From: Heterodontus francisci | Lineage: Eukaryota | NCBI RefSeq assembly: GCF_036365525.1 | Contig: NC_090371.1 | Span: forward strand, 115,954,388-116,018,387 | Direction of reading: 5' to 3' | DNA length: 64,000 nt | Part shown: piece after piece, positions 1-59,938 of the stretch | Numbering within the stretch: the first letter of the stretch is position 1 | Layout: every line of letters begins with the position of its first letter | Notes under the pieces: model-generated | Databases searched by the model: none | The model's input: the letters and a program-made list of their open reading frames with translations, nothing else | What the model was told of the DNA's origin: nothing | Program-made: the position numbers and the translations under genes

Positions 1-1915
1 CCACAAGAAGAAACATTCTCTCCATACCCACTCTATCAAAACCACTCATAATTTAGAAGTGTGATCTAACCAAGGTTTGATACAAGTTTACCGTAACTTC
101 CCCACTTTTCAGTTCTATCTCTCTGGAAGTAAATCCTAGTGCTTGGTTTGTTTTCTTCTGACTTTGCTAATCTTTTAGTAATTGGTATATTTGTACTCCG
201 AGCACAGTGGCGCAGTGGTTAGCACCGCAGCCTCACAGCTCCAGGGACCCGGGTTCGATTCTGGGTACTGCCTGTGTGGAGTTTGCAAGTTCTCCCTGTG
301 TCTGCGTGGGTTTTCTCCGGGTGCTCCGGTTTCCTCCCACAAGCCAAAAGACTTGCAGGTTGATAGGTAAATTGGCCATTATAAATTGTCACTAGTATAG
401 GTAGGTGGTAGGGAAATATAGGGACAGGTGGGGATGTTTGGTAGGAATATGGGATTAGTGTAGGATTAGTATAAATGGGTGGTTGATGGTCAGCACAGAC
501 TCGGTGGGCCGAAGGGCCTGTTTCAGTGCTGTATCTCTAATCTAATCTAATCTTTACCCCACATAGACTCGCACTTTCCAAGTAATAAGTAACCTCCACA
601 TCCTTCCTACCGAAATGTGCTACCTTGCATTTATCTGTATTGAACTTTATTTGCCAATTATTTGCCCATTCTGCAAGTTTATTAATGTCCTCCTGTAATT
701 TCGCAGAATCACAGATTAACGGAATTGTTACAGCGCAAAAGGAGGCTGTTTGGCCCATTGTGTCTACACTGGCTCGCCGAATGAGCAATTCACCTAATGT
801 CATTCCCTGCCTTCTCCCCGTAATCCTGCACATTTGTCATTTTTGGATAACAGTCTAATTCATTTTTGAATCCCTTGATTGAACCTGTCTCCACCACACT
901 CTCAGGCAGTGTATTTCAGATCCTAACCATTTGCTGTGTGGACTTGTTGCACTCTTCCTCAGTATTAACTATCTCCCCCACCACCCCTGCAATTTGGCGT
1001 TATCCGCAAATTTAGAAATTGCATTTTTTGATTCCAAAGACCAAATCATTACTGTAAATTGTGAACAGCAGTGGTCCCAGTACTGATCCTTGTGGAACAC
1101 CACTTCCCACCTTCTGCCATTCTGAATAACTACCCTTTCCTCCTGCTCTCTGCTTTGTCTTGAAGCAAGTTCACAATCCATTCTGCTACTTGTCCTCTGA
1201 CTTTGCATTCTCTGACCTTATTCATCAATCTGTTATGGGGCACTTTATGGAAGGCCTTTTGAAAATTCAGATAAATTACATTTACTGCATTATCATTGTC
1301 TACTCCCTCTGTTACCTCAAAAAATTCAGTAAGGTTGATCAAGCAAGATTTTCCCTTTTGAATCCATCCTGCCTATTCATTATTATATTTTTCTTTTCTA
1401 GATATTTTTCTATTCTCTCCTTTAGTAGGGATTCAATTATTTTCCTCCCAGCAGTGTTAAGCTGACTAGTTTATAATTCCCTGGACATGTTCTGACCTCC
1501 TTCTTAAATATTGGAATTACGTTATCTATCCACCAATCTTCAGGCATTACACCTTTTTTTCTAACGAATTATTAAGTATCTGTCATAATGCCTCTGCTAT
1601 CATTTCCCTAGATTCTTTTAAAATGCATGGATTCAATCCATCTGGACCAGAAGTTTTATCCTCTTTGAGTCAATTAGTTTATTCAATACACCCCTTTTTT
1701 ATTTTAAATGCATTTATCTCATTATTCAATGTCGTGTCGACTTGTTCTATCTCCCTTGTAAATACCATAGCAAAATTATTATTTCATATTTCTGTCATCA
1801 GTCTATCCTGTTTATCTCTTAATGGTCCTATTCCCATCCCAGCCTTCCTATTTTATTGATGTGCCTGCAAAGTACTTTACTATTTTGTTTTATGTTTCTT
1901 GATATTTTAAGTTTG
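1..1915 (-). mobile_element. Decayed CR1 LINE ORF2 (RT region), split by a V-SINE and by a nested CR1 3' fragment (~704-950)
   Basis: Minus-strand peptides INLTEFFEVTEGVDNDNAVNVIYLNFQKAFHKVPH, ISKFADNAKL and WQIKFNTDKCKVAHFGRK are typical of CR1 RT. Many frameshifts. Confidence 0.85.
202..552 (+). mobile_element. V-SINE (HE1-like tRNA-derived SINE)
   Basis: A box TGGCGCAGTGG, B box GGTTCGATTC, central V-domain (GTGTGGAGTTTGCA...GGTGCTCCGGTTTCCTCCCAC), CR1-type tail GGGCCGAAGGGCCTGTTTCAGTGCTGTAT, then (CTAAT)n. Confidence 0.92.
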
Positions 1916-16645: not shown

Positions 16646-18439
16646 ATGGCAGATGGATGGTCAAGAGTGCCCCCATGATTCAGTGATGCCTCCCTGCTGA
16701 TTCTCCTGCAGGCTGCAAGGGAAAGGCGGGAGGTCCTTTTCCCCAGTGATGGCAAGAAGAGGTCCTCCCGCCTGACCAAGCAAGCCTGGACGGAGATCAA
16801 GAGGAGTTCTGATGAAAGGTCACTGACCTGAAATGTTAACTCTGCTTCTCTCTCCACAGATGCTGCCAGACCTGCTGATTATTTCCAACATTTCTTGTTT
16901 TAATCAAGAGGAGGTTAGTAGGCATGGGTCACCCATCATAAGTGCAGGAAGAGGGTCAATGACCTCCTATGCTCAGCAAAGGTAAGTGGCGTGGTTCCAG
17001 ATAGATTATTCTGATCTGCCTACCCACAAGTGTAATGCCGCACGGTTGCCAGAGCCATTCCAATGATAGAAAGGTCATAGCGTAATGATGGCAGATGACT
17101 GACTGCATAGGTGAGACCAGTCTCCCTCGTTTCTATCTTAGCCCAATTGAGACCCATGACAGGTAGAGTTAGTCTGAGAGAAGAAACATCCCCCAGGTGC
17201 TGATGAAGGGTGCATGTTAGTATTGACATGATGTAATTACATTTACAACTTGACAATAGCTGCATCCTTGATCTTTCAGGAGAAGACGGCCCACCACAGC
17301 AGGGAGGTGCCCAAGTGAGGTGCCCAACCTGCGGCCTTTGTCTCAAGAACACATGCCATCTCCAACATCAAGCTCAGGGTCACAGCTGAAGAGAGTGAAT
17401 AAATTGTAATCATATTTTATAGAGATACACCATTGGACAGGTGGGACATGTGGGACATGTGTCCCATAACATCTAAATGTCTGTTCTTTAGATTGGATCT
17501 TGCAGGACACCACTCACAAATGATTCCAGATAATGATCGAAAGACAATAACCTCTGAAGACGAGGAACACTTAGAGGATGCAGCATCCCATGACACCCCT
17601 GCACCTTCCACCAGCGCAGATACTTTCACCTCGGTGGGTATCCGATCGGCATTAGAGTCAGTGTCACAAGCTGCTGAGAGCACAACACATGCACCCAAGC
17701 AGCTGGCTGTGGCAGAGACAGCTGAGGCCTCTGACAGCTGGAGGACTGTGGGTCTCCAGGCCCATGCTGACCTCTAGGCTGATGATGAGCCTCTGGTGTC
17801 ATCAGCACATGGCATGCTAGAGTTACAGGGAGAGGTAAGGCAACATCTGGCAGAGATTGCAGAAGCCATGCCCAGCCATGAGCAGTCGATGGAGGAGTCC
17901 ATCCATGCCATGACTGCTGCCATGTCCCACGCTTATGAGCACATGGCTTCATCCATTGAGATGTTGGCGACCCTCATGGAAAGCCATATTCCACAGGTGT
18001 GCCATGACCTGCAAACCCTCACCTTGGCCATCAGCAGTTGCAGGGCGAGAGAAGGACGAGAAGCCTGTAGAGTTTTCCTACTCCTAATCCTTCTCCAGAG
18101 AGCAGGGATGTTCCAACAAGCCTTGAGAGTGAGGAGGAGAAACTGTGCTCCACATCTGGGGTCTCCCCTCAAGGTGATTTAAGTGTGGACACGCAGTCCT
18201 CAGCCTCTCCTCTAGTGAGTCCAGCTTCAACAGCTGCTATGCCTGAGAACAGCCCTGCACCAGTGCAGGAAGCCTTCTGGCTGTCGGGGTCCTCCAGGCC
18301 TCAGGCACCCAGAGAACAACCACCGAATTCATCACAGGCCAACGAGTGTCCTGATCAGCAGCCTGCCTCCAGTCTAGCTGCCAGTGCAGAGGTAACACCG
18401 CAAAGGAGCACCCACCAACATATTAAAGAGACAGCTTGA
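16646..18439 (+). pseudogene. Harbinger Myb/SANT-like DNA-binding gene (multi-exon, decayed)
   Basis: Peptides FSDASLLILLQAARERREVLFPSDGKKR...KQAWTEI...CRKRVNDL. GTAAG donor at 16982; the next exon starts EKTAHHSRE at 17280. In-frame stop and a Penelope-type insert. Confidence 0.8.
16804..16842 (+). ncRNA. Minimal type I hammerhead ribozyme motif in a 96-bp Penelope-type insert (16807-16902)
   Basis: GAGTT-CTGATGA-A-AGGTC/ACT/GACCT-GAAA-T-GTT-AACTC contains stem I, the canonical core, stem II and GAAA. TSD ATCAAGAGGAG at 16796-16806 / 16903-16913. Confidence 0.8.
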
Positions 18440-34479: not shown

Positions 34480-35640
34480 AAGCAAAAATGAAAGTGCACA
34501 GAATTGGAGGTAACCTTGTGATATGAGCTGATAATTGATTGGGAGGTCAAAGACAGAGAGTAAGAAGAATGTGATCCACAGATGCTGTCAGACCTGCTGA
34601 ATATTTACAGCACTTTTTGTTTTTATTTCAGAATTCTAGCATCTGCAGTACTTTGCTTTTGTGTTCTAATGTGATCGTTGTCTGTTTGGCCTCAATGTGA
34701 CAAGTGCTGTTTCCCAGGGATCTATACTGGGGCCTCAACTTTTCACCATATACAACAATGACTTGGATGAAGGAATAGAGAGTTGTATAGTCAAGTTTGC
34801 AGATGGCACTAACATAGGAGGCGAGTAAAATGGGAGCTGGAAGCTATAAAGGGAGATAGACAGATCACACAAGTGGGAAAAACTATGGTAGATGGAGCTT
34901 AATATGGGGAAGTGGGAGCTTATCCACGTTGGATCCAAAAAAGACAAATCATACTTTTTAAATGGTGAGAAATTAAGAGCTTTAGCGGAGTAAAAAAATT
35001 TAGGTATCATTATATACAAATCACTCAAGGCTTGTGCACTGATACAATAAGTAATCAACAGTCTAATGGAAGGAGGGCTTTTTATCTCCATGGGACTGGA
35101 ATACAAAGGGAAGGAAGTGATGCTTCAGTTGCACACAGCCTTGATCAGACACCATCTGGAATGCTGCATTCAGTTTTCGGTGGCGCACGTCAGGAAGGGT
35201 ATATTTGTCTTGGAGAGCTACAGGTATGATACAGAGGTTTAAGAGGTTAAAGTATGAGGATAGGCTGCATAAACTTGGCTTGTATTCCTTTGACTTTAAA
35301 AGGCTAAGGGAAAAGCGCATGGGGGCATCTAAGCCGAGGGGACACTGTTTCAGAATCAGAGGTCTTCCATTTAAGAAGGAAATGAGGAGGAATTTCTTCT
35401 CTCAAAGAGTCGTTAATCTTTGGAGTTCTCTTCCCCAGAGAGCAGTGGAGGCCGGATCATTGAATATATTCACTGTTGAGTTAGACAGATTTTTAATCTA
35501 CAAAGGAATCAAGGGTTATGGGAGGCAGGCAGGAAAGTAGAGTTAAGACCATAATCAGATCAGCCATGATCTTTTTAAATGATGGAACCAACTTGAGGGG
35601 CCAAATGGCCTGCTTCTGCTTCTATTTCTTATGTTCTAAT
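34480..35640 (+). mobile_element. Decayed CR1 3' part(s)
   Basis: PQGSILGPQLF-type and KFADGT-type motifs, then RRNFFSQRVVNLWSSLPQRAVEAG and a CR1 tail. Confidence 0.82.
34577..34667 (+). mobile_element. 91-bp Penelope-type terminal-repeat fragment (no ribozyme core)
   Basis: Homologous to 16855-16902 and to the reverse complement of 56472-56555. TSD AATGTGATC at 34568-34576 / 34668-34676. Confidence 0.8.
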
Positions 35641-48665: not shown

Positions 48666-50835
48666 GGAATGGATGGGCTATCTTATGAGGAAAGATTGGA
48701 CAGGCTAGGCTTGTATCTGCTTGAATTCAGAAGAGTAAGAAGTGACTTGATTGAAACATATACGATCCTGAGGGGTCTTGAGAGGGTGGATGTGGAAAGA
48801 ATGTTTCCCCTTGTGGGAGAATCTAGAACTAGGGGTCACTGTTTAAAAATAAGGGGTCGCCCATTTAAGACAGAGATGAGGAGAATGTTTTACTCTCAGA
48901 GGTTCATGAGTCTTTGGAATTCTCTTCCTCAAAAGGAAGTGGAAGCAGAGTCTTTGAATATTTTTAAGGCACCCCCTGTATCTCTGCAATCTCTCAGCAT
49001 TTAGATAATATCCTTCTTTATTATTCTTCCTATCAAAATGGACAACTTTGCATTTTCCTACATTATACTCGAACTGCCAGATTTTTGCCCAGTCACTTAA
49101 CCTAGCTATATCCCTTTGTAGCCTCCTTATTTCCTCTTCACATCCTACTTTCCTACCTATCTTTGTGTCATCAGCAAATTTAGCAACCATACCTTTGGTC
49201 CCTTCATCTAAATCATTTATATAAATTGTAAAAAGTTGAGGCCCCAGCACCGATCCCTGTGACACACCATTTGTTACATCTTGCCAACCAGAAAATGACC
49301 CAATTATGCCTACTCTCTGTTTCCTGTCAGTTAGCCAGTCCTCTATCCATGCTAATATATTAATATATCTAGCAAAATATCTAGCTAACAGGAAACAGAG
49401 CGCCAGGATAAGCAGGGCATTTTCAGGTAGGAAAATTGTGGAGTGCCGCAGGGATCAGTACTGGGGTCGTAACTATTTACAATCCATAGCAATGACTTGG
49501 ATGAAGGGACCGAATGTATTATAACCAAATTTGCTGATGATACAAAGAAAGATAGGAAAGCAAGTTGTGAGGAAGGCACAAAGTGTCTGCAAAGAGATGT
49601 GGATAGTGTTATGACCAGGTGAGAAAGGTGTCTAGGGGTTCCTTTCAGCCTTCACCTGGTCTTACTGTAACAGGGTTTTATTTTTAAACACACTGTGTTT
49701 TGAGCTGCCGCTTGATGAATCTTTTATCACTGCTTTCCAATTATAAGGCAAAGAAATGAGCATAAACAGGCTTTCTTAGGTTTAAAGAAGAAAAGTAAAG
49801 TTTATTAGAACTTAAACTTAAATTCTAATTTGGTTAATGCCTACAGATACACTCCGCGTCCATGCTAGCAGGCATATGCGATATGCACATGTAAATAGAG
49901 ACCGAAAAGAGCAGAAGAAAATTAGTGGAGTGGTTTGAGGCAATCTCTGAAGAGGGGATCTTTGTTACTGTGCTTCGAGCTCGTTGTAGTCCTAGCTTCT
50001 AGGTAGATCTTGCTTTTCATTGGGGTCCAATATTCCTCTTAAATCTTGTTCATTGTAGGAGACTTTTCTCTCTTGGGGTTCAAATGCCTTCACTGGTTTC
50101 CGAAGCTGGTGAGAGAGATGAGAACAGAGAGGAGAGGCAGTGGCAAGCCAGCAACGAGAGGTCTTTTCAGTCCAGGAGCAAACAGCTTTTGGACTTCAAA
50201 CACTGTTTCTCCAATTTAAAACGCCCTTAGTTGGTCAGCAGGTGGTCACATGACTGACTGATTTCACCAGGTCACTTCTATGTATTGAGAGCATCTTAGC
50301 AGTCAACCTGGAATGCAAGTTTCTCCACCTTCAACATCTGGTAATCAAAAGTCCATTGTGGATTAAATTGGAGCAGGAAATGGCCCCTTTGTCCTTTCCA
50401 AGTACTCTCTATTACTATGCGAATGTATTTCCAGTCAAGAGTCTAGTGTTTTTTTTAAAGTTATTTCTTTACTCCAGTAACAGTTTAAAAATCAATGTTT
50501 GTGTGGTGAAATTAATGTGCCCCATTATTGGCAGATGGGGGCCTGCATGACAATAGGTTAAGTGAGTGTGCAAATATTTGGCAGATGGAATATAATGTGG
50601 GAAAATGTGAGGTTGTCCATTTTGGTGGCAAGAATAAAAAAGCAGAGTATTGTTTAGACGGAGAGAGACTGCAGAATGCTGCGGTACAGAGGGATCTGGG
50701 TGTCCTTGTACATGAATCACAAAAAGTTAGCATGCAGGTACAGCAAGTAATTAGGAAAGCAAATGGAATGTTTGCCTTTATTGAAGGGGGACAGGGTATA
50801 AAAGTAGGGAAGTCCTTCTACAGCTGTACAGGGTG
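48666..50835. mobile_element. CR1 fragments: plus 48666-48970, minus 48972-49355, plus 49380-50835 (split by a solo LTR)
   Basis: Peptides LSYEERLDRLGL, QGSVLGPQLFTIYINDL...KFADDTK and WQMEYNVGKCEVVHFG. Confidence 0.85.
49607..50552 (-). mobile_element. Solo LTR (946 bp) of the Gmr1-type family
   Basis: TGTTATGACCAGG...GCCTGCATGACA termini and 4-bp TSD ATAG at 49603-49606 / 50553-50556. Homologous to 53349-54289. Confidence 0.92.
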
Positions 50836-53052: not shown

Positions 53053-53348
53053 ATAGAATTGCAAAGAGTGTACAGCACAGAAACAAGCCATTCAGGCCAA
53101 CTGATCCATGCCAGTGCCCATGCTTCACATGACCCTCTTTCATCCCCTACTTCATTGAAACTTATCAGCATAAACTTGTATTCCTTTCTCCTCAACTATG
53201 TATCTAGCTTCCTCCTTAAATGCATCAAGGCCAGTTTCCTCAACTAATTATTTTGGCAGTGAGTTACATATTCTAACCAGTCTTGGGGTCAAGAAGTTTC
53301 TCCTAAACTCCCTAATGATTTAATAGTGACTATCTTATACTTATGGCT
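53053..53348 (-). mobile_element. CR1 3' end hosting the Gypsy element (continues at 59280-59330)
   Basis: GTGACTATCTTATACTTATGGC|...|CAAGTGGAAACATC is collinear with the CR1 at ~39885-39945. Confidence 0.7.
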
Positions 53349-56300
53349 TGTTACGACCAGGTGAGAAACAAGTCCAGGGTTCCCTTTCAGCCTTCACCTA
53401 GTCTCACCGTAACAGGGTTTAATTTTCAACACATCATGTTTTTTAGCTCCCCCTTGGTGAATCCTTATTCACCGCTTTCCAATTATAAGGCAAAGAAACC
53501 AGCACAAACAGGCTTTCTTAGGTTTAAAGAAGAAAAGTTGAAATTTATTAAACTTAAACTTTAATTCAGCTAATGCCTACGGATACATGATGTGCCTACG
53601 CTAGCATTCATACGCGATACACACATGCAAATAGAGACAGAAAAGAGCTGAAGAAAAATAAAGTGGAAAAGTTTGAGGCAATATCTGAAGAGTTCTTCTT
53701 ACATTTCTTCAAGCTCACTGTAGAGCCCTTGATTGCAGGTCGATCTTGCTTTTTGTTGTGGGCCAGTATTCTTCTTAAACCTTGTTTGCTGTAGGAGACT
53801 TTTCTCTCTTGGGGTTCATGTGTCTTCAGTGGATTCAGAGACTTGTGAGGAAGAGATGGGAGCAGGCGAACAGAAGGGGCTGTGGTGAGCCAGCCAGGAG
53901 AGATCTTCTCAGTCCAGGAGCATTCTGCTTTCTGCCCAAACTGTGTGTACAAATTCAAAAAGCTCAGTTTGCCCAGCTGGTTAGTTATGCAACTAGCTGG
54001 TTTGACCATGTCCGTTTGTGTATTCGGCCATTTTAGCAGTCAATCTGGAATGCGAGCTCCCCCACCTTCAACATCTGGTGATCAAAAGTCCATTGTGAGT
54101 TGAATGTGTCAGGGAATGACTGCTTTGTCCTTCCAAACACTGTTTGTTAATATGCAAATGTCTTTCCAGCCAAGATCTGGCAATTTTTGAAAGCAAGTCC
54201 TTTCTTCACTTCAACAACAGTTTGAAATTTAATGTCCATGTGGTGAAATTAATATGCCTCATGCTTGGCAGGTGGGGGCCTGCATGACACCTTCACACCC
54301 AGTGGAATGAAATGCAATTTGAGAAAAGCACATTTAATTAAAAGGGTCGAGAAAAAAATGTAAGATATAGAAAAAACATGCATTTCTCTCATTCATTCCC
54401 ATTCATTCATAAATCCTAAAACTTATTACAGTCTGTCTTTTCTTGATGCCAATGCTACTTTAATGGCCCCCTTTTTGGCATCTCAATAAACATGTCATTC
54501 TTTTTTTTTGGAAAGTTTCTCTTCCGTTTGCCCATTTCCATGGCTGCCTGGGGTCTTTGTTCCTGTTGAGATCTGAAAAGGTGAATGGGTGGTTTCTCTT
54601 TGCTTCTGACTGTGGGGAAGGATTCTTTGCTAATCTCCCCTTTGTTCCAGAGGACAGTTCTGCCTGCAGGTATTTGTGCAGACTCCACTGCACTCCCCTG
54701 TGACACTTTGACGAGGTGAGACATCATTGTCACGGTTTCTCTGCCCATAAGAGGTCTTTCTTTGTCTCTACAGGTTCCTGTCAGTGCTGTTAGCAACTCT
54801 GGTGGGGTGCTTCTAGTGTCTGCATTTACATAGGAGGATGTGGGTCTAACCTTTTACACTTTTCGGTGTTAGCTGACCGGATAATAGGGGTTTTCATCCA
54901 GAATTATTCCCAGACTTCCTTTAACCTGCCCTCTTGGTCACTTATTCCCCTTTTCTGTCTGATCTTTTCCCAGCCTTGTGCCTGCCTGTTCCTTTTTGTT
55001 CTCGGTGGGGGTCCCTTACAGTTCACCAGCCCCATGCTGGAGGGTCCTCCTAAAACTGGTGCAGGACTTAGGGGTGCAGGTTTCACAGTAGGTTGGGGTT
55101 CCCCTCAACTTGGCACATGTGGCAACTCCTGCAGTACTTCACCACATCTTTGTGGAGTTTTGGCCAGTCAAACCATTGTCTTATGCGGGCTATGGTCTTT
55201 CCTATACCGGCATGTATAGCCACTGTAGTCTCATGGGTCCTTCTTAATATTTCTCTCTGGTACCTCTGTGGCACCACTAACTTGTGAACTATTGTCTACT
55301 CCTTGCTCTCAGTTCTGTGAGGAGAACTCCATTTCCTCATCAGTACCTCATTCTTTAAATAGTAGCGATCAGGGACTCCATCTGCATCACTTTCAGACTG
55401 GGCAGCCTGTGCTAACGCTCACAATACTGGTTCAGCTCGCTGAGCCTCAGCTAGGGAAAATCCATTTAATTCATTTCCTGGTCTCCTAACTTTGCAAAGA
55501 AAGTCTTGGACAGGCAGACCTCATGGTCATCTGCCTGCGGTTCCAATGCAGTCTCCTCTGGGGAGCTGGTTTGATCATAGCCTGACCCACTACACATTCA
55601 GGGAAACTGCAGGGGTCCGTCTCCCACCACTGTCCTGTCTCTCTGACATCCTGTGGTCTTTCTTTCACTACTGGGGGAGCTACCACCTTCACCCCCAGCA
55701 GATCATTACCTAGGAGCAGGTCAACCCCGTCCACAGGCAAACTAGGGACAATCCCTACGGTCACCGGTCCTGAAACTAGGTTACACTCCAGGTGCACCTG
55801 GTGTATAGTTACATTCATACACTGCCCTCCAATACCATTCACCACCATTCCGGTGTTCACTGCACTCTCTGGGGGAAAGGTCAGGTCTGTTCCCAGTAAA
55901 AGGGATCTAGCGGCCCCTGTGTCCCTGAGAATTACTGTAGGCTTGCTTGCCCCTCTCGAGTGGTATGGGGTTACCCTCCCTTCAGACACAAAACCTTGAT
56001 AATCCTCAGGAATCCTATTACATTTTCCTGGACTTGCAGCCATAAGGGTTCTGGGTCTCACTCTTACTGCTGTTAAAGCTACAGCTTGTTCTGCTGTGCT
56101 TTCCATCAAGTTCACTTCTTCACTGATCGGCTGTGCTCTGATTAACCCTACAGGTTTTCCCTTTAGTTTCCAGCAGTCAGCTTTTAAATGCCCTGCTTTA
56201 TTACAATAGAAGCACACAGGTCTCCAGGTCTCATTCCTGCTCCCAGCACCTTCCTGCTTGGCTAAAGGAGACACAAGGCCCCTGTGTCACCTGCTTCTCT

Positions 56301-56461
56301 TTCTCTCCCAGGACTGCTTGGGCTCCTATTACCTTCCCACCCTTTGTCCACTTCGGATTTGTGGGGGTGATTAGGAAAGGTTCTCCCCTGGGAAACTGAC
56401 TTATAAATTAAAGCAAACTCATCAGCTAGAATGGCTGCTTGCCGGGCTCTCTGAACTCACT

Positions 56462-56824
56462 CACATAAAACAAAAGCAAAATACTGCGGATGCTGGAAAT
56501 CTGAAACAAAAACAAGAAATGCTGGAATCACTCAGCAGGTCTGGCAGCATCTGTGGAAAGAGAAGCAGAGTTAACGTTTCGGGTCAGTGACCCTTCTTCG
56601 GAACTGACAAATATTAGAAAAGTCACAGATCCCGTCGGAGAAAAGAGCAGAACTTCTTCAAGGTAGGCATTCCTGGAAGAGAAGTGGCAGTGAATTAAAC
56701 ACTAAAATAAAAGCAAAATACTGCGGATGCTGGAAATCTGAAACAAAAACAAGAAATGCTGGAATCACTCAGCAGGTCTGGCAGCATCTGTGGAAAGAGA
56801 AGCAGAGTTAACGTTTCGGGTCAG
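56462..56824 (-). mobile_element. Young Penelope-type partial-tandem insert within gag
   Basis: Two identical ~119-bp direct repeats (56472-56590 and 56709-56827). TSD TGAACTCACT at 56452-56461 / 56825-56834. Short ORF start MPTLKKFCSFLRRD from 56670. Confidence 0.85.
56569..56605 (-). ncRNA. Minimal type I hammerhead ribozyme motif
   Basis: Minus strand AGTT-CCGAAGA-A-GGGTC/ACT/GACCC-GAAA-C-GTT-AACT. The palindromic ACGT stem III is typical of hammerheads that need a dimer. Core variant CCGA. Confidence 0.78.
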
Positions 56825-57674
56825 TGAACTCACTGTTCCTCTACATGGGTCTTTATGGAGAGTGGGAGAGAGTGTTTAAATTCCTCTAACATAATTGCTT
56901 CTCTAAGACTCTCATAGCTGAGCTGTACTTTAGGAGCCCTCAGCCACAGGTCAAAAGCCAGCTGCTTACTTTTTTCAAACTCCAGATAACTTTGATTAGC
57001 TTGCTTCTTGAGGGTTCTAAACTTTTGGTGATAGGCTTCAGGTAATAATTCATAGGCACGAGGATAGCACTTTTTGTCAGTTCATAATTTGATGAACTCT
57101 CATCTGGCAACAGGGAATAAACGCTTTTCCAGTTAGCTTGCTTTGCAGTAAAAGAGGCCACATTTCAGCTGGCCATTTTAGCTGCCTTGTCAGTTTCTCA
57201 AAGGACCCAAAAATACTTCTACATCCTCCTCATTGAATTTTGGAATTAATTGAGCTAGTTTTAACAATTTTGTACTCAGTCCTGAATTATGCTCCTCCAT
57301 ATTGGCCATGCTTTCACTGAGGTTACTCTGTCGCCCCCCCGCACCCCCCCCCCCCCCCCCCAAGTTAACTCAAGCCACTACACAAACTCTCTTTCTTTGC
57401 ATTCCTTCCAGAATATTATTTCTCTCTCCCTCTCCTGTCTTTCATTTTCTTCATGTTCCTTTTGGCAGGCTCTTTCTTTCTCCCTCTCCTCTAATTCAAG
57501 TTTCCTCTGTTACAATTGTATCTTTGCTAACAATACCCTGTCAGAGTCTGCTTCTAACCCTGTTTCTGCTTCTTCAGATTCAAGGGAAAAATGGTTGGCC
57601 ACTAGCCTTAGGAGTTCAGACTTCCCAGCCTTGCCACAAACAGTGATCCCACACTGCTCAGCCATTTTCCTCAA

Positions 57675-58032
57675 CACAGTGGCGCAGTGGTTAGCACCAC
57701 AGCCTCGCAGCTCCAGCGACCCGGGTTCAATTCTGGGTACTGCCTGTGTGGAGTTTGCAAGTTCTCCCTGTGTCTGCGTGGGTTTTCGCCGGGTGCTCCG
57801 GTTTCCTCCCACCACCAAAGACTTGCAGGTTGATAGGTAAATTGGCCATTATAAATTGCCCCTAGTATAGGTAGGTGGTAGGGGAAGATAGGGACAGGTG
57901 GGGATGTGGTAGGAATTTGGGATTAGTAGGGTTAGTATAAATGGGTGGTTGATGGTTGGCACAGACTTGGTGGGCCGAAGGGCCTGTTTCAGTGCTGTAT
58001 CTCTAAATAAATAAATAAAAATAAATAAATAA
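57675..58032 (+). mobile_element. V-SINE inserted in the gag 5' region
   Basis: Full SINE structure with an (AAAT)n tail. The gag frame reads MEE|LRKMAE across it. Confidence 0.92.
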
Positions 58033-59683
58033 ACTCCTCCATAGTCAGCGCTTTTAACAAATCCCAAGTTACTTCACCCTGGCTTGGAGAGCTACTAGCT
58101 TCAGTTGCAGACATGTTAGTATTCAAGCACACACAACCACAAGAAAAGCTGGATTGAAATCTAGCACTTTTTGTTTGGGAACAATTTGGCTTCCCACTTC
58201 CAATTTCTTTCGTTTGTCTGTGGGTCAATTCCAGACGCTAGCACCAACATTTTTGTTACAACCAGATGAGAAAGAGGTCTGGGGTTCCCTTTCAGCCTTC
58301 ACCTGGTCTTACCATAACAGGGTTTAATTTTAAAACACCATTTTTTTAGCTCCCCCTTCGTGAATCCTTGTTCACCACTTTCCAATTATAAGGCAAAGAA
58401 ACCAGCACAAACAGGCTTTCTTAGGTTTAAAGAAAAAAGTTGAAATTTATGAAACTTAAACTCTAATTCGGTTAACGCCTACGGATACATGACGTGCCCA
58501 CGCTAGCTTTCATATGCGATATACACATGCAGATAGCGACAGAAAAGAGCTGAAGAAAAATAAAGTGAAAAAGTTTGAGGCAATATCTGAAGAGTTCTTC
58601 TTACAGTTCTTCAAGCTCACTGTAGAGCCCTTGATTGCAGGTCGATCTTGCTTTTTGTTGGGGCCCAGTATTCTCCTTAAACCTTGTTTGCTGTAGGAGA
58701 CTTTTCTCTCTTGGGGTTCATGTGTCTTCAGTGGATTCAAAGGCTTGTGAGGAAGAGATGAGAGCAGGCAGACAGGAGGGGCTGTGGTGAGTCAGCCAGG
58801 AGAGATCTTCTCAGTCCAGGAGCATTCTGCTTTCTGCCCAAACTGTGTGTACAAATTCAAAAAGCTCAGTTTGCCCAGCAGGTTAGTCATGTGACTAGCT
58901 GATTTGACCATGTCCATTTGTGTATTTGATCATCTTAGCAGTCAAACTGGAATGCGAGCTCCCCCACTTTCAGCATCTGGTGATCAAAAGTCCATTGTGG
59001 GCTGAATGTGACAGGGAATGGTCCTTTGTCCTTTCCAAGCACTGTTTGTTAATATGCAACTGTCTTTCCAGCCAAAGGTCCATTATGGGTTGAATGTGTC
59101 AGGGAATGGCTGCTTTATCCTTCCAAACACTGTCTGTTAATATGCAAATATATTTTCAGCCAAGATCTGGCAATTTTTTAAAGCAAGTCCTTTCTTCACT
59201 TCAACAACAGTTTGTAATTTAATGTTCAATTGGCGAAATTAATATGCCTCATGCTTGGCAGGTCGGGGCCTGCATAACATAGCCCAACAAGTGGAAACAT
59301 CCTCTCTATGTTTACCCCAACAACGCTTTTCACAGGACTGAATTTAAACATTTGGTCCCACTCACAGTGCGGGGAGGTCGGCAGCTGGTTGGGAAACTGC
59401 AAGTTCTTGGATTGATTTTTCAGTAGCTTTTTAACTGAGCCATAGCATTAACATCCCAATTCTGGGTTTCACAACCAATCGGAGCAGGCAGCTGTGAACA
59501 TATCCTGCAACAGACTGTTGAAGCCTCGGTATTTAGAAGGACACTAGTGGGAGACAGAATGGAACCATTCGACAACTGGCAAGTGAGAGACAACAATTCA
59601 AGTGATGGAATCTCAACAAGGAAAGGGTGTTCCCCCCCCACCCTCCCCAACCTTCCTCCCCATTCTATTACCGGAACCCCGGT

Positions 59684-59938
59684 TTTGGGTACTGCCTGTG
59701 ACCGCGTGAGTTTCCGCCAGGTGCTCCGGTTTCCTCCCACCGCCAAAGACTTGCAGGTTGATAGGTAAATTGGCCATTGTAAATTACCTAGTGTAGGTAG
59801 ATGGTAGGAGAATTGTGGGGATGTGGTAGGGAATATGGGATTTATGTAGGATTAGTATAAATGGGTGGTTGATGGTCGGCACAGACTCGGTGGGCTGAAG
59901 GGCCTGTTTCAGTGCTGTATCTCTCTATGACTCTATGA
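59684..59938 (+). mobile_element. V-SINE, 5'-truncated and internally deleted
   Basis: End of the V-domain and a tail ending (CTCTATGA)2. Confidence 0.85.

Follow-up and report, generated by a model that had tools for sequence, protein, structure and literature searches.

The stretch of DNA analysed here (the window) comprises 64,000 nucleotides of contig NC_090371.1 of Heterodontus francisci. Between positions 53348 and 59279, its minus strand carries an older, decayed LTR retroelement of approximately 5.9 kb, which retains remnants of SCAN, zinc-knuckle and protease domains and is framed by LTR-like repeats (53348-54289 and 58253-59279) that are about 92% identical; no RT is present among the stop-free segments listed for this element. 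Its SCAN-bearing gag-like region is interrupted by a single insert of 363 bp (56462-56824). The insert is flanked on both sides by a 10-bp TSD, TGAACTCACT, one copy of which lies at its 3' end (56452-56461) and the other at its 5' end (56825-56834), an arrangement with a chance probability of about 3e-5. The preliminary description had given the same boundaries and had suspected that three base pairs of the TSD could be microhomology; indeed, the last three bases of the TSD (TCA on the minus strand), at the insert's 5' end, also fit the element. Other repeats in the window include an older sequence related to the host LTR element (around 50001-50552, 76% alike) and two related short repeats (57690-58004 and 59689-59924, 86% alike) with a tRNA-like start, one of which lies inside the LTR element and which, judged by these features, are probably SINEs.

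Read on the minus strand, the insert consists of a half hammerhead, a leader, an ATG with 14 codons, a junction, the end of a 3'UTR, a complete hammerhead and again the leader. It contains two 125-bp repeats (56466-56590 and 56703-56827) at a spacing of 237 bp; the repeat pair described earlier is therefore real, but its members are near-identical rather than identical, with 124 of 125 positions matching (99%) and the one mismatch located near the 3' end. In the coordinates of the source family, where the predicted ribozyme cut is position 0 and the ATG lies at +139, the insert runs from -15 to +180 and then from -58 to +106. The upstream turn (56629-56824, minus strand) comprises the half hammerhead, the leader and the ORF start, begins in the stem II loop, as had been noticed before, and is identical to the family copy L005 at 196 of 196 positions. 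Its ORF starts with the ATG at 56670 and yields MPTLKKFCSFLRRD, the first 14 codons of the Penelope ORF (56629-56670), before the junction is reached, again in line with the earlier reading. The junction itself, previously called abrupt, is present but not clean, since +180 is joined to -58 through a 3-nt GAT microhomology (56631-56629) common to both sides. The downstream turn (56466-56631, minus strand) stops at the distal of the two usual 3' ends of the family and is followed at the priming end by TGTG (56462-56465), four bases without a match to the reference copy. Each half of the insert is 100% identical to other family copies (196/196 and 159/159), which shows that the insert is young and agrees with the very recent event proposed earlier, the LTR-like repeats of the host being about 92% identical.

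On sequence grounds, the insert derives from a young and very abundant Neptune-type Penelope family with a 3.3-kb unit, and the Penelope-type origin suggested earlier is supported. In the source copies L036 and L037, RVT_1 (E 1.5e-5) and GIY-YIG (E 0.0015) both remain under the Pfam curated cut-offs, with their motifs visible, and the linker that joins RT to EN, CNRRRCNTC, agrees with the CX2-5CxxC definition for EN+ Penelope-like elements (PLEs) given in PMC8557442 (statements on this and all other papers cited here refer to their available sections). Across the 6.0 Gb of genome scanned, the ORF start was found 2,404 times and the hammerhead 35-mer 28,152 times, both as exact matches. Full-length copies are also found in tandem (pLTRs), with three units in L119 and two in L052. 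In L119 (G000:C1:104036000-104045999), at least three full-length units lie head to tail, 3,296 bp apart, and this tandem is a possible source of read-through RNA. The 3' ends of 69 family copies fall into two groups, 35 at +60..78 and 32 at +99..112, which fits the optional 30-40-bp tail that is known from EN+ PLEs together with partial tandems, pLTRs and inverted 5' copies (PMC8557442, PMC3846280). The family thus resembles the Neptune/Nematis EN+ PLEs (Craig et al. 2021, PMC8557442; Arkhipova et al. 2013, PMC3846280) in its single ORF with RT, CxxxxCxxC and GIY-YIG, its 3.3-kb tandem units, a pLTR that contains the hammerhead, two 3' ends separated by about 35 nt and TSDs of 9-16 bp; PMC8557442 gives this layout for Neptune/Nematis, and the assignment to Neptune is putative. 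Elsewhere in the window (16805-16901 and 34575-34665), two older pieces of this Penelope terminal repeat remain, with identities of 90% and 86%; the first of them has the canonical CTGATGA core.

The complete hammerhead (56569-56605, minus strand) is of the minimal type I, with a predicted cut at 56573/56572, and the half hammerhead (56806-56824, minus strand; predicted cut at 56810/56809) consists of the 3' strand of stem II, GAAAC-GUU and the 3' strand of stem I; both cut sites were predicted from hammerhead numbering. Stem I, G10.1-C11.1, the extra base after A9 (an A before stem II), GAAA, the NUH triplet and a palindromic 15.2-16.2 are all present, stem II reads GGGUC/GACCC and the palindrome AACGUU; the one complete and one half minimal hammerhead recognised before are real. 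The canonical core C3-U4-G5-A6-N7-G8-A9, in contrast, is altered, with CCGAAGA (U4C) in place of CUGANGA, and an Rfam search returned no hammerhead at E<=10. CCGAAGA occurs in 141 of 176 motifs of the fetched loci, a pattern-biased set, and the 28,152 exact 35-mers of the U4C form compare with 3,349 of the CTGATGA form, numbers that reflect the decay of older copies and are not total copy counts. The U4C change is reported to reduce hammerhead activity considerably in vitro and yet to permit viroid infectivity (PMC3088659). Since the U4C subfamily holds by far most of the identical copies, its probably weakened ribozyme was no obstacle to expansion. Approximately 18 matches of one hammerhead variant lie within 270 kb at G000:C1:235.84-236.11 Mb, a cluster which suggests local segmental amplification.

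Folding predictions place the hammerhead of the insert in an unfavourable context. An 11-bp hairpin (56587-56626, minus strand; 56626-56616 with 56597-56587) is predicted, in which upstream 3'UTR sequence pairs with the core and stem II. For RNA from -58 to +106, the predicted probability of this helix is 0.90 and that of stem II 0.02, so that the hammerhead core would be sequestered in the insert RNA; in RNA beginning at -33, stem II has a predicted probability of 0.69, and in longer natural context the 11-bp helix is predicted to be weaker (0.34-0.45). As there is just one complete core, at most the upstream site could be cleaved in cis. The whole insert is no more stably folded than shuffled sequences (z -0.78), and the 363-bp insert itself is likely inert.

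Position -33 is the main 5' stop of the family. It corresponds to the A at 56605 within the motif TCAGTT (56602-56607, minus strand), which resembles the initiator consensus, and it is likely the transcription start. Copies beginning at -33 gave 5,776 matches, of which 24 of 30 checked were true ends (approximately 4,600), compared with 790 matches for copies beginning at the cut, of which 11 of 30 checked were true ends (about 290 or fewer). In a sample selected by hammerhead, 33 of 69 copies begin at -36..-30. As a candidate cap-derived base, a G is found at the start of 41 of 100 listed -33 matches (hand count; background 28%, p 0.003), several of these Gs coming from inverted arms. Ahead of many of the copies that start at -33 in L204-L233 (G000:C1), the first bases of the copy recur as short repeats (e.g., AGTTCCGA repeated in L218), which look as if the RT may slip and re-copy at the 5' end of its template.

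Following the preliminary description, the insert could be read as retrozyme-like, with hammerheads that cleave as dimers to free a 237-nt RNA or circle, which would then spread. The period of 237 lies within the retrozyme range (roughly 150-400 nt), the two copies can be drawn as a nested fold in which a 5-bp helix III forms between them, and the insert is in sense orientation to the host LTR element, which makes read-through possible. However, the exact junction has a single match in 6 Gb, at this locus, and a CpG-tolerant version of the search likewise gave one match, whereas the units of non-LTR retrozymes occur at many loci; a unique junction was the very result that the description had named as speaking against its proposal, and the insert therefore does not belong to a retrozyme family. 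Retrozymes also carry more than one hammerhead copy, compared with one complete and one half here, although the sibling loci L011 and L143 have at least two. Furthermore, the unit closes at +180/-58, away from the predicted ribozyme cut, which makes a ribozyme-made circle unlikely. Ribozyme processing to a 237-nt RNA is also opposed by the single complete core, its U4C change, the rarity of true 5' ends at the cut relative to -33 and the predicted energetics, in which the active two-copy fold lies 12-13 kcal/mol above the minimum, with a stem II probability of 0.004. Altogether, we consider the retrozyme-like reading very improbable.

The origin of the layout can be addressed through the siblings of the insert. 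Of the first 100 ORF-start matches listed, all on the single contig C1, 98 were fetched and merged into 92 loci; the exact ORF start was required, so that donors below +157 lie outside the sample. Among these loci, 41 extend deep into the ORF, 31 turn back to a position upstream of the hammerhead and 20 show other arrangements, which extrapolates from this one contig to about 800 loops genome-wide (range 580-1,070). The donors lie at +166..+322 in 27 of the 31 loops and the acceptors at -33..-310, eight of them at -33/-34; 29 of 31 loops end in the two 3' clusters of the family (+64..75 and +101..109), and a flanking repeat of at least 8 bp is present at 19. None of the loop junctions listed lies at the ribozyme cut site. 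Older copies that have the canonical core show loops too, as in L116. Splicing or back-splicing as a source of the junctions is rejected: acceptor-like AG motifs exist, but no listed junction joins a GT donor to the base that follows the AG. An assembly artefact would be in keeping with the absence of a junction-spanning piece from the contigs of four public runs, which are dominated by repeated family copies; given the exact 10-bp TSD, the one-base difference between the repeats and 30 other sampled loci with the same layout and junctions of their own, it is hardly conceivable.

Six loops from a separate search were added to the 31 from C1, giving 37 loop loci. Of these, 25 end before the acceptor position and hence say nothing on repeats, and 12 reach it again: seven repeat the same junction (L003, L011, L066, L069, L072, L143 and L155), four stop at the acceptor (L016, L068, L113 and L162) and one, L062, continues for 259 nt past its own acceptor (five, three and one, respectively, in the C1 sample alone). 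Ordinary copies also stop at -33, the position of three of the four exact stops. In six of the seven repeaters, the middle turn holds 24-591 bases that are absent from both flanking pieces, which rules out unequal crossing-over after insertion for these six. At four loci, each of the two inverted arms contains one and the same junction; in L055, one arm ends at +70 and the other at +101, both of them usual 3' ends, which would fit two separately primed cDNAs. All four junctions tested proved private, occurring at one locus only, and those of L011, L055 and L069 are each found twice at their own locus and at no other place in the genome. L069 and L116 were examined as a candidate shared-junction family, since their junctions have the same coordinates (+192/-62); they belong to different subfamilies, however, and the L069 junction is confined to its own locus. 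The repeats within a locus, the sharing between both arms and the private nature of the junctions together indicate that the junction goes with the template molecule and not with a parent locus. In L072 (G000:C1:67248495-67251518), a loop of 1,488 nt (-94..+1394) has its junction three times, two direct and one inverted, and is flanked by a 14-bp TSD.

These observations bear on the simplest competing explanation, namely that the insert is a collapsed element, which lost about 3.05 kb between +180 and -58 in a one-off event, either through one RT jump on full-length RNA or through microhomology-mediated DNA deletion in a full-length copy already inserted. Such a loss yields exactly the 363-bp sequence, agrees with the 3-nt microhomology at the junction and with L062, and has precedents in rotifer Penelope copies (PMC3846280). 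It leaves unexplained, however, why a second turn or the opposite arm shows the junction again, why both breakpoints cluster no more than about 300 nt from the hammerhead when the unit measures 3.3 kb and why eight of 31 acceptors are exactly at -33/-34; moreover, the 100% identity leaves little time for a later deletion. We therefore regard a collapsed element as rather unlikely, although it is the alternative to be taken most seriously.

Exact repetition of junctions is also expected if the template was a covalent 237-nt circular RNA, ligated by the host from a trimmed fragment at a site other than that of the ribozyme and copied by true rolling-circle RT. In L003 (G000:C15:66956847-66960186), where +216 is joined to -33, five untemplated As are even present on both turns, which suggests that the template was a short RNA with an oligo(A) tail; the junctions shared by inverted arms are likewise accommodated by a circle, and a host-type ligase can close retrozyme RNAs into circles in vitro (PMC7229834). 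Ligation, however, should not enrich microhomology. Among the 26 clean junctions, microhomology of at least 1 nt was found at 20 (null 51%) and of at least 3 nt at seven (null 8%), with p of about 0.005 in both cases; the null consisted of random pairs, the better of two references was taken, and 11 of the 37 junctions were left out of the count, five without an anchor and six with nearby mismatches. This enrichment favours an RT jump by pairing over ligation. In addition, four inserts halt exactly at the acceptor, and L125 and L162 have a single extra G before -33, as a capped linear end might give. A covalent circle is therefore considered improbable, and we favour a linear RNA whose ends are fixed and on which the RT jumps from end to end.

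We thus think that the insert was probably written by target-primed reverse transcription (TPRT) of a short, uncut element RNA (about -58 to +180), which was copied about 1.5 times round. A read-through transcript over the 3'UTR, the hammerhead and the ORF start would be trimmed to a piece of 200-500 nt, probably the part bound by the element's protein. The endonuclease would cut the target, and the RT would begin inside the RNA at about +101-106 and copy through the uncut hammerhead up to the RNA 5' end at -58. The end of the cDNA could then pair through three bases (GAT) with the same RNA near +180, whereupon a second round would start; synthesis would halt at -15, the foot of the predicted hairpin, and joining to the target would leave the 10-bp TSD. 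As the junction is crossed just once in this insert, its assignment rests on the family pattern. In the family, the seven repeaters, the junctions shared by both arms and the single case among 12 that reads past its acceptor suggest rolling-circle-like RT of short uncut RNA pieces. The circle-like template proposed earlier thus gains support at the level of the family, as the source of the insert; as its product, it does not.

Several known systems resemble parts of this picture. The PLE partial tandem described in PMC8557442 and PMC3846280 consists of a truncated copy ahead of a full-length one, whereas the ORF in this insert breaks off after 14 codons and the sequence loops back, and siblings repeat a private junction. 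In vitro, Poseidon of Anolis uses internal RT starts and an uncut RNA substrate (Frangieh et al. 2024, PMC11167929); two internal start sites set the tail and both target strands are extended, as appears to be the case here. Poseidon belongs to another clade, however, and its ORF starts inside the hammerhead, compared with 139 nt after the cut here; looped or repeated-junction products were not found in the available text of that paper. The minimal hammerheads of metazoan PLEs (Cervera and de la Pena 2014, PMC4209133) likewise lack a helix III loop and have a palindrome at 15.2-16.2, an extra base between 9 and 10.1 and G10.1-C11.1, whereas the expanding subfamily here has the U4C core. In the proposal of these authors, the templates are circles whose ends join at the ribozyme cut; the loops described here close elsewhere. 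R2 RT, too, moves between template ends (Pimentel et al. 2022, PMC8857657), but it jumps between separate templates and needs untemplated bases, while the jump here is likely back to the same RNA and often by microhomology.

The closest functional parallel is with the non-LTR retrozymes (Cervera and de la Pena 2020, PMC7229834; Li et al. 2026, 10.64898/2026.07.22.740005), which share the tandem unit of 200-500 nt, one type I hammerhead per turn and an origin from PLE pLTRs. The insert differs from them in having 1.5 units at one locus and a minimal instead of a canonical ribozyme, and it is known from DNA alone; in its workings it resembles a retrozyme tandem in the course of being written, yet it is not a retrozyme. 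Li et al. link retrozymes to pLTRs and attribute their birth to tandem duplication and unequal crossover after insertion, whereas the tandems here appear to be written at insertion. Rolling-circle-like RT of uncut pieces is thus a plausible birth route for retrozyme-like tandems. That the Penelope RT routinely acts in this way on short uncut RNA, so that hammerhead-bearing tandems with private junctions are written within one insertion, with about 800 events in this genome, and that these events are the step at which non-LTR retrozymes are born, without need of ribozyme cleavage or of later DNA duplication, is put forward tentatively, as a proposal about which we are slightly more doubtful than confident.

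What is new is the loop layout at 31 of 92 ORF-start loci with private junctions repeated within inserts; no description of such repeated private junctions within single Penelope insertions was found in the available sections of the literature searched, subscription papers lying outside this search. As a locus, the 363-bp sequence is an ordinary dead insert, and it is informative as one among hundreds of looped copies. The looped inserts record both ends of the template at hundreds of sites; they show a template that closes away from the ribozyme cut, in a family whose fastest-expanding subfamily has the U4C core. The finding bears on the formation of Penelope partial tandems, the role of the hammerhead and the origin of retrozymes, and the young, nearly intact family allows a direct in vitro test.
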